Assembly: GCA_020726185.1 (NCBI GenBank)
Contig: DYTB01000006.1
Span: 1-61,233, forward strand
Direction of reading: 5' to 3'
DNA: 61,233 nucleotides
DNA from: Candidatus Odyssella sp.
GTDB lineage: Bacteria > Pseudomonadota > Alphaproteobacteria > Paracaedibacterales > CAITNM01
Position numbers and translations under genes: made by a program. Below the pieces are notes generated by a model that had not been told where the DNA came from, ran no database searches, and saw nothing but the letters and a program-made list of their open reading frames with translations. Positions within the stretch are counted from its first letter, which is position 1, and each line of letters begins with the position of its first letter. Shown here in pieces: positions 7,843 through 14,120 of the stretch.

Positions 7843-7953
7843 ACATGTGTGAATATATAGAAGAATATTGCAGGCTTTTTCTAAAATCGCAAGTCTTTTT
7901 ACAGCATTGCTCTTCAATTATATCGTTTGTCGCCTTCAAATTTGTAATCTTAC

Positions 7954-10152
7954 TTAGTTTTCATATGATAAACGCCATCCCAATCCGCTGGGGGGGGGGT
8001 TGAAAGCTTCACATCTTTCAATATAGAGTTCACATGGATCATCTTGGCCAAATATCCTTTGTAAATCGTGAAAAATAGTTAAAGCCTCATCCCAGCGTTG
8101 CTCAAGATAGAATCTAAAAGCTTTAGTAAATTCATTACAGAACTTTAGTTGATCATCACTTGGCAACACCAAAGGGTCAGAATTTTTCAAAGCAACCAAT
8201 TCGTAAATAGTAACCCCTTCGTTTTTACCTTTAACCGCAACAATATCTAATGGGCGAACAACTGCATGATCGTGCAAATGGTGAACTGTTGCTTCACTAA
8301 GCATAATATTTGTTCCATAAGCCTTGTTGGCTCCTTCAAGACGTGCCGCCAAGTTAACGGAATCACCAATAATTGTATAATTCATTCGTTCAGATGACCC
8401 TATGTTTCCAACAATCACTTCACCTGTATGAATACCAATTCTTGTTAAAAGCTCTGGCTTCTTCTCAAAGACCCACTTCCGATTGAGATCCAACAATCGT
8501 TTTTGGCAAAGCAATGCCGTTAAACAACAATTTAGGGAATGGGCATTATCTTGTTGTGGAGCGCCCCAAAAAGCCATGATTGCATCTCCAATATATTTAT
8601 CTGTCGTTCCATTGTTTTCAGCTACAATAGAGGTCATTTCATCAAAATATTCATACAAGTGTAACACCAGCTTTTCTGCGGGATAAGTTTCACTAATAGT
8701 TGTAAAATTGGCAATATCTGAGAAGAAAATTGACAATTGCTTTTTCTTACCGCCTATTTTTACTTCAACTCCCTTGTCCACAAGTTTTTTTACCAAATTT
8801 TTAGGCACAAATTTTCCAAATGAAATAAGGCTTTTCCGCATACGTGAAATAGAATTTTGCAGTTTTTGTATTTCCTTAATTCCAGAAACCACTTCAGCCA
8901 CTGGATCCAAATCAAAATTGGTTATCTTATCGGCCTGTAATGACAGATTATTAATAGGTGCAGCTATACGCCTCGCCATAATCGCTATGACTACAATCGA
9001 AAGAATTAATATCAGAAGACAAATCAGCAGCGTATTACGTTGTGTAACCTTAACAACCCCAATGTATTCATCAATAGGAGTTATCATTAGAAATTCCCAC
9101 CCTTTAAAGCCTTCCAGAAGGAATTCTTTAAATAGAGCAATATACTCAACATCTCCTGATGTGAAAATAAAACGTTGCTGTTTATCAATTTGCTTTGCAT
9201 GATATGCAACTGATGCAGTCTTGTCAGTTAAATCATCTATAGTAACTAATTTAGTTTCTGTACCAACAACTTTAGAATAGTTTTTTTCAGTGGGATGAGC
9301 GACTATTTCACCTTTTTGATTAAGCACCATAGATACACCTTTTATAGCACTTTTTTGAAGGTCAACAGCCAGTTTAGGTAAACCTACAGTGGAAGAAATG
9401 ACCCCTACAAAGTCTCCAGTATCTGAAAGTAAAGGTACACCACAAGCAATACTTGGCGCTTGCGTCACATCAGAAACAAAAATATCTGTCCAAATATTCG
9501 AACGGTTTTGCGCCGTTTTTATGTACCATGGACGATTTTTGTGAACCATGGTAATTTGCGCTTCAGGTATTTTTTCTTCGTCTATTTTTTTACCTTCATT
9601 GTCTAGATAGATCCATATTTCTGTTGGCTTTACATCGCTTCTATCAACGATTCTTAAAGCAAATATAGCTTTTTTAGGGAGAATTTTTGCTTGTTCAACA
9701 CGATAGGTTGTACCTGGTGTTATTGGTTTTACTTGTACAAAATACCCTGACTCTGTACCAACATATACACTATCCACAAGCTTATACTGGCGGCAATGTC
9801 CCATCATAAATTGAATTAAATCTTTGCTAATTACAGCAGCTTTTGAGGTATCTCGTACTAAGTACCCACCAAGTTCTGTTGAAGTTAGAACTTCACGAAA
9901 ATTATCCGCAATACTTGAAACTTCAGAAATACTGGCATTTTCCATTAAACGATTCGAAAAATCAACAATTGAACGAGAGTTATTAATATAGGTGTAGGTT
10001 ACAATGGAAATAGCTGTGATAACCTGCAAAACAAAAAAACTACTTAAAATATCAAATCTAAGATTTCTACTTTTGAATCTATTCGTTAACACACTGAAAA
10101 AACTTTTAATAATCATAGATAATTTCCTATAGTTTTTTATTTTAATTTGCAC
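7954..10152 (-). CDS. Membrane class III adenylate cyclase (TM-dCache-TM-HAMP-cyclase-TPR-like tail), last ~13 codons frameshifted at a C10 tract
   Basis: FSDIANFT, DKYIGDAIMAFWGAP, RIGIHTG and NYTIIGDSVNLAARLE; RPWY Cache motif; two TM segments. The alternate frame after the tract reads ADWDGVYHMKTK* (stop 7950-7952). Confidence 0.9.
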   Translation of the reverse strand: MQIKIKNYRKLSMIIKSFFSVLTNRFKSRNLRFDILSSFFVLQVITAISIVTYTYINNSRSIVDFSNRLMENASISEVSSIADNFREVLTSTELGGYLVRDTSKAAVISKDLIQFMMGHCRQYKLVDSVYVGTESGYFVQVKPITPGTTYRVEQAKILPKKAIFALRIVDRSDVKPTEIWIYLDNEGKKIDEEKIPEAQITMVHKNRPWYIKTAQNRSNIWTDIFVSDVTQAPSIACGVPLLSDTGDFVGVISSTVGLPKLAVDLQKSAIKGVSMVLNQKGEIVAHPTEKNYSKVVGTETKLVTIDDLTDKTASVAYHAKQIDKQQRFIFTSGDVEYIALFKEFLLEGFKGWEFLMITPIDEYIGVVKVTQRNTLLICLLILILSIVVIAIMARRIAAPINNLSLQADKITNFDLDPVAEVVSGIKEIQKLQNSISRMRKSLISFGKFVPKNLVKKLVDKGVEVKIGGKKKQLSIFFSDIANFTTISETYPAEKLVLHLYEYFDEMTSIVAENNGTTDKYIGDAIMAFWGAPQQDNAHSLNCCLTALLCQKRLLDLNRKWVFEKKPELLTRIGIHTGEVIVGNIGSSERMNYTIIGDSVNLAARLEGANKAYGTNIMLSEATVHHLHDHAVVRPLDIVAVKGKNEGVTIYELVALKNSDPLVLPSDDQLKFCNEFTKAFRFYLEQRWDEALTIFHDLQRIFGQDDPCELYIERCEAFNPPPSGLGWRLSYEN

Positions 10153-10256
10153 CCTATTACTTAATTGTAAATAAAATGTATTAATTTGTTACTAACAAAA
10201 GCGTTAAAATACTCTATATTCGATAATTTTATAGCTTATTGAACTAAAGGTTACCT

Positions 10257-13067: not shown

Positions 13068-13079
13068 AAAGGGATTATC

Positions 13080-14120
13080 ATGATTAAATTACGTCTATTA
13101 TTTGTAGGGTTATTTGTGCTTGGTAGCACCTATTTTTTAGTCAAAGAAAGTATTTCCACACCTAGAATTCTTGTATTACAAAGTTATGGAAGTGATTATT
13201 CTTGGACACATGATGTTGATGTTGGTATCAAGAAAATTTTGGAAAAAGAAAGTACTGTTACCGTAAGGTGGCACTATATGGATACAAAAAATCACCCAGA
13301 AAAGCATTACTTAGAAAAAATTGGTATTGTTAGTAAACGAGTAATAGATCAATTCAAACCATCTGTGATCATTGCAGTAGATGACGATGCTCAGGAATAC
13401 GTGACTAAGTACTACAATAACGATCCAAACATTAAGATTGTTTTTTCTGGCGTAAACGCCACAAGGGAAGAATACGCCTTTGATAAGGCAAATAATGTCA
13501 CCGGTATTTTAGAACGCTTACCGGCTGATGGCATTGTTGACTCACTACAGCTACTTGCAGGGACGACAAATACTATAAAAATAATTCATGTAAGTGATGA
13601 GTCAAAAACCGTAAAACTTGATGATAAGTTTTTGCATGCATATAAAGGATGGAAAAATGTAAAAATGCTTCCTTCACTGCTTGTTTCAACTTTTGATGAT
13701 TGGAAAGTAGCTATTAAAAAAGCCAGCGAAGATGCCGATTATATCGTTATATCAAATTACAGAAAAATCTATGACGTTAAGGGCAGTGAGAAAAAAGTTC
13801 TCCCTAAAGAAATAATGGCATGGACTATGGCCAATGCTACTAAGCCAATAATAGGAATGAATGCGTTTATATTTGAAGATGGTGCGCGTTTAGCAATAGC
13901 AACATCCCCTTACGAACAAGGAGAGGTTGCTGCAGTATTTGCGCTAGAGATTATCAAGACAGGTGTTCTACCCCCTCATACTCAAACCAAACAGTTCGTA
14001 ATAGGAATAGATGAAGAATCTATCATGCCAGGTGGAGAATTTTTTGGACTTCCAAAAACTTATGTAGCCTATGCTTTGTATTCAGGAAAATTCAGACAAA
14101 AGAAAATCAATGCAAAATAA
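13080..14120 (+). CDS. ABC_sub_bind-type periplasmic substrate-binding protein, orphan
   Basis: N-terminal anchor; ILVLQSY...WT, YMDTK, IIAVDDDA, VFSGVN, NVTGILE and EQGEVAA motifs. Confidence 0.75.
   Translation: MIKLRLLFVGLFVLGSTYFLVKESISTPRILVLQSYGSDYSWTHDVDVGIKKILEKESTVTVRWHYMDTKNHPEKHYLEKIGIVSKRVIDQFKPSVIIAVDDDAQEYVTKYYNNDPNIKIVFSGVNATREEYAFDKANNVTGILERLPADGIVDSLQLLAGTTNTIKIIHVSDESKTVKLDDKFLHAYKGWKNVKMLPSLLVSTFDDWKVAIKKASEDADYIVISNYRKIYDVKGSEKKVLPKEIMAWTMANATKPIIGMNAFIFEDGARLAIATSPYEQGEVAAVFALEIIKTGVLPPHTQTKQFVIGIDEESIMPGGEFFGLPKTYVAYALYSGKFRQKKINAK

Follow-up and report, generated by a model that had tools for sequence, protein, structure and literature searches.

Positions 7954 to 14120 of contig DYTB01000006.1 from Candidatus Odyssella sp. 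(GenBank assembly GCA_020726185.1; the whole 61,233-nt stretch is referred to below as the window) carry genes for a membrane-bound adenylate cyclase, a HAD hydrolase, a permease of the DASS/SLC13 type, and a periplasmic binding protein. This arrangement raises the question of whether the four genes form a self-contained circuit in which a host solute is sensed, the cyclase makes cyclic AMP (cAMP), and cAMP gates the permease through an N-terminal domain resembling cyclic-nucleotide-binding (CNB) domains, as a preliminary description of this DNA had proposed. The four open reading frames (ORFs) were found where they had been placed, with cyclase and hydrolase on the minus strand and permease and binding protein on the plus strand, and all four identities were confirmed. 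The unit that emerged from comparison with other genomes is smaller than the block. Permease and binding protein form a constant pair that is probably an undescribed kind of binding-protein-dependent transporter, the cyclase is probably a frequent but optional companion, and direct gating of the permease by cAMP is, judged from the cassette sequence, unproven.

A permease and a binding protein encoded as a pair

As a test of the proposed module, co-occurrence of its genes was examined in other genomes. Loci from 16 relatives and from the window genome (1.54 Mb, 94.7% complete) all have a binding-protein gene immediately after that of the permease (20 of 20), as do all 29 loci of a species-representative genome collection, a set that partly overlaps the 20. 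A metagenome scan, which was built from a 12-sequence alignment and covers one branch of the permease family, yielded 64 loci with at least 1150 bp of downstream sequence, and the binding-protein gene follows the permease in every one (58 clean cases and 6 with a long-ORF start artefact). The pairing also holds for a paralogous pair that is approximately 25% identical to that of the window. In the metagenome loci, the distance from the permease to the first possible binding-protein start is mostly −25 or −4 nt, and the genes are usually translationally coupled. Permease and binding protein were together in every locus examined. Genes of the block do, then, occur together elsewhere, and this test did not refute the proposed module: the pair is constant, the cyclase recurs beside it in several arrangements, and the HAD gene was found beside it only in this bacterial order. 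Parts of the genes for cyclase, permease, and binding protein are represented by RNA-library contigs of 90-99% identity from three coded runs, and contigs in two runs bridge the junction of permease stop and binding-protein start, which shows presence only and no defined transcript. The HAD gene was covered by no RNA-library contig in X18-X20, from which nothing is concluded, as contigs do not demonstrate absence.

The permease ORF (11157-13067, plus strand) probably starts at ATG 11220, as the motif AAAGGA lies 6 nt upstream of this codon. Following an N-terminal domain that is treated below, it encodes a disordered linker (residues 135-153) and a membrane domain of the DASS/SLC13 fold (residues 155-615; together 11622..13067, plus strand). 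The Pfam family CitMHS matched the window permease at 49.5 bits (cut-off, 31.9), and TIGR00785 matched at 66.8 bits, under its cut-off of 198.6. A profile of the family matched DiT1, DiT2.1, and LaINDY with E values of 1e-23 to 1e-21 and VcINDY with only 1e-7; by sequence, the membrane part is nearest to the exchanger-type DASS proteins DiT1, DiT2.1, and LaINDY. The AlphaFold2 (AF2) model of the permease (predicted local distance difference test, pLDDT, 84.6; predicted template modeling score, pTM, 0.80) comprises a beta-roll with a short cassette helix, the linker, and a helical membrane domain with the two-domain (scaffold and transport) DASS fold. In Foldseek searches, the membrane domain matched DiT2.1 (template modeling score normalized to the target, TM(target), 0.82; E 6e-13) and VcINDY (TM 0.81-0.85), as well as NaCT, NaDC3, NaS1, and yeast Pho90 (TM 0.72), with TRAP SiaQM as a weaker match (E 2.5e-6). 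Ser-Asn-Thr (SNT) motifs at the hairpin tips, which serve Na+ and carboxylate, are a feature of Na+-coupled DASS members. The permease hairpin aligns as TPxxPSxxxR, akin to PSVSAR of DiT1, and the SNT motif was not seen in that segment.

An exhaustive profile search (clusters at 50% identity) placed 626 clusters in the permease family at E ≤ 1e-30 and 2969 at E ≤ 1e-10. The top 150 are mostly full-length fusions of 600-650 aa. Members are present in protist endosymbionts and environmental metagenomes, and homologues, for example in the marine genus Thalassomonas, are annotated just as "SLC13 family permease." The extra domains in 13 longer members that were scanned are GAF, 4HB_MCP, CstA, and additional CNB domains. 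In a second clade of the genus (L023, L024, and L025 in G006, G004, and G010), the syntenic site holds a permease of ~474-494 aa without a CNB domain, together with a binding protein, in opposite orientation; the genes are only 30-33% and 43-46% identical to those of the window, and the site looks like a replacement or inversion within that genus.

The binding-protein gene (13080-14120, plus strand) starts 12 bp past the permease stop and was assigned by Pfam to the PF04392 type of solute-binding proteins (28.2 bits; cut-off, 25.9). Its model (pLDDT 89.9) begins with an N-terminal helix (residues 2-26) and continues as a type I periplasmic-binding-protein fold, for which the top Foldseek matches were 3lkv, 3lft (L-Trp), and CD0873 (E 4e-13 to 1e-10); LuxP in complex with LuxQ (1zhh) is among the fold neighbors. 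Of 71 family members, 70 have a strongly hydrophobic 19-residue segment directly before the first strand and a single one has a lipobox-like motif, the window protein having no lipobox, which points to a binding protein that is probably signal-anchored in the inner membrane. According to PMC10443332, the ligand is L-Trp, L-Tyr, or L-Phe in the three PF04392 proteins for which ligand-bound structures exist. The subfamily of the window is too divergent for this specificity to be transferred, its profile matching 3lkv at just E 6e-4.

The binding protein had been described as an orphan, and with respect to ABC systems this is the case. No ABC importer gene lies within the block and no ABC permease or ATPase adjoins the PF04392 gene; the ABC gene nearby (15090-16853) is of the fused exporter type, and among 81 immediate neighbors of the metagenome loci a single one is ABC-related (an ABC2_membrane gene on the opposite strand). 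The protein makes better sense as a transport partner of the permease than as a pure sensor, since it follows the permease even where no cyclase lies nearby, in ~85% of the metagenome loci.

Several further pairs were observed. In the window genome, contig C44 (L032:9075-11993) carries a second, paralogous pair that is broken in both genes, at homopolymers (T7 near L032:10047 and A8 near L032:11441); assembly error, slippage, or decay could account for the breaks. A PstS-like gene follows this pair, as in relatives. In loci with the paralogous pair (L028-L031 and L053-L061), a PBP_like_2 (PstS-type) gene and an SLT gene lie downstream, and genes for an APH-type kinase and a nucleotidyl transferase, which we take to resemble AmgK and MurU, lie upstream. 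At six metagenome loci (L099, L107, L120, L123, L125, and L134) the permease gene is immediately preceded, on its own strand, by a gene for a TAXI-like NMT1_3 protein (411-537 aa), so that each of these operons has two binding-protein-type genes. Locus L037 (= G021:C6) is labelled Verrucomicrobiales; its genome was assigned to the order of the window, its binding protein groups with Paracaedibacterales sequences, and the label is probably wrong. Elsewhere in the window genome, contig C12 (7891-9689) contains two strong tandem PF04392 genes with one TAA inside each match.

The adenylate cyclase and the hydrolase

The cyclase gene (7954..10116, minus strand, in an ORF open to GTG 10152) encodes a first transmembrane segment, a periplasmic dCache_1 domain (approximately residues 58-371 of the long ORF), a second transmembrane segment, a HAMP domain, and a class IIIb catalytic domain. 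ATG 10116 is the probable start because orthologues are 722-727 aa long. Pfam recognized dCache_1, HAMP, and Guanylate_cyc (PF00211, 92.3 bits; cut-off, 21.9), and the best solved relative is CyaB of P. aeruginosa (3r5g; E 1e-31). Catalytic motifs had been described as intact, and FSDI, DKYIGD, and YTIIGDSVNLAAR indeed align with CyaB 3r5g and are conserved. In class IIIb adenylate cyclases, such motifs supply the two metal Asp, the Lys/Thr pair for the substrate, and the Asn and Arg of the transition state. One class III cyclase was found in the window genome.

The cyclase adjoins the pair in 12 of the 29 genome loci, 7 of them from one genus, and does so in five arrangements: cyclase-HAD facing permease-binding protein; permease-binding protein-HAD-cyclase; cyclase facing the pair; pair-cyclase; and HAD facing pair-cyclase. 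Among 55 metagenome loci with an observable flank it adjoins the pair in 8 (downstream in 7 of 40, upstream in 1 of 46), and two partial cases were seen in addition. Five of the metagenome cyclases that were scanned are of the dCache-HAMP type and lie downstream of the pair, and the dCache-HAMP cyclase of L101 lies upstream. In three others (L121:7801-9807, L135:7909-9930, and L157:7891-9936) the sensor is a PF04392 domain, followed by the catalytic domain and TPR repeats. In signature motifs, this sensor agrees with the subfamily of transport binding proteins (hhalign probability 99.3, E 1.6e-20). In a quick tree of binding proteins, the cyclase-fused sensor domains fall on a long separate branch; the fused sensor is thus an old duplication and not a copy of the adjoining binding protein.

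Homologous cyclases were also found beside binding proteins or carriers elsewhere in the order, in 5 of 18 cyclase loci examined. Operons of the form SBP_bac_3-cyclase-SDF, in which SDF (PF00375) is an elevator-type carrier, occur at L070:360-4670 (G017) and L073:5523-9814 (G030), where the SBP_bac_3 and cyclase genes are spaced by a 4-bp overlap and a 3-bp gap; they represent a second combination of binding protein, cyclase, and secondary carrier in the same order. At L075:6725-10515 (G040) a cyclase paralogue follows an SBP_bac_3::Gly_transporter fusion, and at L076:6245-11389 (G001) and L077:3235-8414 (G031) cyclase paralogues follow an sCache_3_2::MFS fusion and a 270-aa gene, for which, in L076, no SBP_bac_3 similarity was detected. 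Taken together, the adjacency of cyclases to the pair, the cyclases with a PF04392 sensor, and the SBP_bac_3 operons tie cyclases to binding proteins and secondary carriers. As a recurrent gene association, the functional module of the preliminary description is supported, with the cyclase as an optional and not a constant part.

An MFS transporter gene (6406-7683, minus strand) lies directly downstream of the cyclase and is syntenic across the genus; a terminator-like hairpin (7722-7704) separates the two. Given the sCache::MFS-cyclase loci elsewhere, this MFS gene may be related to the cyclase.

The remaining gene of the block (10257..11060, minus strand) encodes a HAD-IIA hydrolase of the uncharacterised TIGR01459 group (134.6 bits; cut-off, 103.75), with Pfam matches to Hydrolase_6 and Hydrolase. 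Motif I reads DLWGV in the window protein and D[LIV]WGV in 8 of 8 homologues. Finniella and several further genera of the order have the gene beside the pair (L018, L020, L021/L039, L026/L049, L027, and L045). It lies next to guanylate kinase in L018 and L020, and a BLAST search with the window protein (1e-6) did not detect it next to the pair in the metagenome branch.

As described beforehand, the divergent four-gene block is AT rich, with a GC content of 0.305-0.36 over 9.5-13.5 kb versus 0.38-0.42 in the flanks. The divergent intergenic region (11061..11219) is likewise AT rich and contains the Shine-Dalgarno-like AAAGGA that precedes the permease; promoter-like hexamers were in no excess over shuffles, either there or in a scan of 7600-14400. 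Recent transfer of the block was considered and rejected, as it is syntenic throughout the genus and its low GC content fits membrane-protein genes.

The CNB-fold domain of the permease

Residues 1-134 of the permease (11220..11621, plus strand) form a cytoplasmic domain whose assignment to the CNB fold was tested as a possible refutation of the proposed circuit, and the assignment held. A profile of 18 permease N-terminal domains matches the CNB domains of PKG and PKA (E ~1e-30), and 18 of 18 family N termini match PF00027 at E ≤ 0.01 (best, 1.2e-14). In the AF2 model, the domain has a pLDDT of ~80-90, with strands within residues 32-105, a helix at 81-84, and helices at 106-130; Foldseek aligned it with the CNB domain of MloK1 (TM 0.83-0.85; root mean square deviation, 2.1-2.2 over 127 columns) and also with HCN CNB domains.

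The cassette FFSCESVLGLQNHT is present in the permease and, as had been cautioned, is without the canonical Gly and Arg, carrying Ser for Gly and His for Arg; the Gly-Glu and Arg of a phosphate-binding cassette are thus not found in the window protein. Among 125 aligned domains of 162 family proteins, Tyr (94 domains) or His (15) mostly stands where the Arg for the cyclic phosphate would be, with Phe and Arg in 4 domains each, and the near-invariant Glu of the family cassette lies one position past the canonical Glu, at Gly+2. In relatives, the cassettes of MscS-CNB channels (FGEMSLLTGQKRSATV) and of stand-alone CNB proteins are canonical and include the Arg (FGE...R[ST]A), so the loss of Arg is specific to the permease family. 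Examples of these channels and of the stand-alone proteins of ~120 aa, all with the canonical Arg, are at L083:2457-3845 (G006), L084:2508-3908 (G021), and L086:1564-1914 (G001); neither type was found in the window genome. Permeases without a CNB domain still adjoin the cyclase (L038, L040, L041, L046, and L048). Gating of the transporter by cAMP, which the preliminary description had placed at the center of the circuit, accordingly receives no support from the binding cassette.

In the window genome, PF00027 matched solely the two permease N termini. If cAMP has a CNB-type receptor in this genome, it would be the permease CNB domain, within a genome that is incomplete and a survey of CNB-type receptors only. 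An Arg-less CNB domain has a precedent in the PKA regulatory subunits of kinetoplastids, which bind inosine, guanosine, and adenosine and not cAMP, according to passages of PMC10959531; these share with the permease the CNB fold, replacement of the cyclic-phosphate Arg, and conserved acidic cassette residues. Unlike them, the permease has a conserved Tyr or His, a Glu at another position, and a fusion to a transporter.

Weighing the readings against related systems

We hold it rather likely that the PF04392 protein and the DASS permease constitute a binding-protein-dependent secondary transporter with the cyclase as an accessory sensor. This reading builds on what was directly observed, namely the gene identities, the folds, the gene linkage, and the substitution in the cassette. 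The core would be a two-gene operon encoding a CNB-fold::DASS elevator-type permease and then a PF04392 protein tethered by its uncleaved N-terminal helix. The tethered protein would capture a periplasmic solute and hand it over to the permease, so that the pair would act like TRAP, TTT, and TAXI-GltS systems while being drawn from different families. Standing outside this constant unit, the cyclase would answer to the same periplasmic solute and make cAMP, its input arriving either directly at the dCache domain or, much as in LuxP-LuxQ, by way of the loaded binding protein. The CNB-fold domain would tune transport in response to a cytoplasmic ligand; candidates are cAMP, if bound non-canonically, and other ribose-containing or metabolite ligands.

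A number of points weigh against this reading. The window genome contains a BPD_transp_2 permease with its own PF04392 protein (contig C49:31301-32763), and an ABC partner acting in trans stays conceivable for the binding protein considered here. No binding-protein::permease fusion was seen among the 13 longer family members scanned, and the 81 neighboring ORFs gave no consistent substrate clue, containing TAXI-like NMT1_3 (six), PF04185 phosphoesterase (two), Metallophos (one), EAL-HDOD (two), and pantoate ligase (four) genes. With regard to the cyclase, 39 of 41 genomes in the order encode it, against only 19 of 41 for the pair, and the orthologous cyclase lies far from the pair in G021, G028, G034, and G040; it therefore works without the pair and is not dedicated to it. 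Part of the adjacency could be inherited synteny among relatives. A class III cyclase was present in five of five further carrier genomes, which does not separate the readings. Lastly, the cNMP_binding (PF00027) score of the window protein itself, 15.8-17.2 bits (E 0.014), is below the cut-off of 27.5.

Systems with a comparable plan are TRAP (DctPQM and SiaPQM), TTT (TctABC), and the TAXI-GltS system of Bordetella pertussis, in all of which, as here, a binding-protein gene is translationally coupled to the gene of a secondary elevator-type permease without ABC parts; with TRAP the membrane domain moreover shares the DctM/DASS fold. The present pair differs from them in using PF04392, anchored by an N-terminal helix, instead of DctP, TAXI, or TctC, and in having a single DASS-type chain without a Q subunit, a CNB-fold domain, and, often, an attached cyclase; its dependence on the binding protein is here inferred from genes, folds, and linkage. 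Because its components are PF04392 and DASS proteins and not DctP/TAXI/TctC with DctQM/TctAB/GltS, the pair is not a member of the TRAP, TTT, or TAXI-GltS families. The DASS/SLC13 carriers DiT1/DiT2.1, LaINDY, and VcINDY have the same fold and are the best sequence and structure matches, but the permease scores under the cut-off of TIGR00785 and has an extra N-terminal regulatory domain, and known DASS members need no binding protein. Yeast Pho87, Pho90, and Pho91 resemble the permease in that a cytoplasmic ligand-sensing domain is fused N-terminally to a DASS-fold carrier. Their sensing domain is SPX, which senses inositol pyrophosphates, whereas the permease, which comes from a bacterium and is partnered by a binding protein, has a CNB-fold domain. 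A table of PMC8401276 gives the domain combination "SLC13_permease, SPX."

As to the possible route from binding protein to cyclase, the type I fold is shared with LuxP (1zhh). In LuxP-LuxQ, a type I binding protein signals via a tandem-PAS periplasmic domain, whereas the putative partner here is a dCache_1-HAMP sensor.

The strongest competitor concerns cAMP itself. We regard it as possible, though doubtful, that the cyclase makes cAMP upon sensing a host solute and that binding of cAMP to the CNB domain gates the DASS permease directly. Such gating could go together with binding-protein-dependent transport, the dispute being limited to the step from cAMP to the CNB domain. In favor of direct gating, cyclases stand beside CNB-bearing permeases in unrelated lineages and arrangements, the sole cyclase and sole CNB-type domains found in the window genome belong to these genes, and the CNB fold is confident and includes the short cassette helix; variants with GAF or a second CNB domain would be expected of a nucleotide-regulated carrier, and four family members keep the canonical Arg. 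The cassette nonetheless argues the other way, with Tyr or His at most Arg positions, a shifted Glu, and, in the window protein, no Gly, a loss that is specific to the family where other CNB proteins of relatives are canonical. Cyclases also adjoin CNB-less permeases, ~85% of the metagenome loci have no adjoining cyclase, and the Arg-less kinetoplastid PKA subunits bind nucleosides and not cAMP in the account of PMC10959531. A broader proposal, which we consider unlikely, is that of a fourth class of binding-protein-dependent secondary transporter embedded in a self-contained loop with a solute-reading cyclase and an Arg-less, Tyr-type CNB domain. The cyclase would then read the same solute via dCache, the loaded binding protein, or a fused binding-protein paralogue, and the Tyr-type domain would offer a new mode of ligand recognition, for non-canonically bound cAMP or for a nucleoside-type ligand. 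The SBP_bac_3-cyclase-SDF operons of the same order would, on this proposal, point to binding protein, cyclase, and elevator carrier as a general design.

Two other explanations were weighed. It seems quite improbable that the binding protein is a tethered sensor or regulatory subunit that reports its occupancy to permease or cyclase while the permease imports directly. The fold neighbors include LuxP with LuxQ, which signals to a tandem-PAS sensor, and a paralogous domain serves as the sensor of cyclases, but the universal adjacency to the permease with or without a cyclase, the translational coupling, and the mere ~8-10 residues from helix to first strand, which suit delivery to a membrane partner, speak for a role in transport. 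Passages of PMC12344293 add, on the side of a sensor, that characterised DASS carriers need no binding protein. Little credence is given to the view that the four-gene block is not a functional unit and that cyclase and HAD gene are syntenic neighbors of an independent operon, preserved by slow rearrangement in small genomes. In its favor, almost every genome of the order has the cyclase, often at another site, the HAD gene pairs with guanylate kinase in two loci, one genus accounts for 7 of the 12 genome loci with a linked cyclase, and the layout in the window is divergent. Set against this are the 8 of 55 distant metagenome loci with differing cyclase architectures, where chance adjacency for a single gene family was roughly estimated at <1%, the rearranged versions that still keep the genes adjacent, and the cyclases whose binding-protein-like sensor links sensing to this very subfamily of binding proteins.

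A binding-protein-dependent secondary transporter with an accessory cyclase thus remains our preferred reading. No description of a PF04392/DASS pair or a CNB::SLC13 fusion was found in open-access papers and bioRxiv. According to passages of PMC12344293, TRAP and TTT were the only secondary carriers known to use binding proteins before TAXI-GltS, an elevator-type mechanism has been proposed as a requirement for binding-protein use, and further classes have been called for. A DASS-fold carrier that is always paired with a tethered PF04392 protein would, if the reading is true, provide such a further class for testing the elevator idea. It would also be a tractable case of post-translational transporter control through a CNB-fold domain in which a conserved Tyr replaces Arg, and would link class III cyclases to solute-binding proteins as sensory inputs. 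With a single cyclase and no other recognisable CNB protein in its genome, this organism would offer a minimal system for asking what cAMP does in an endosymbiont.

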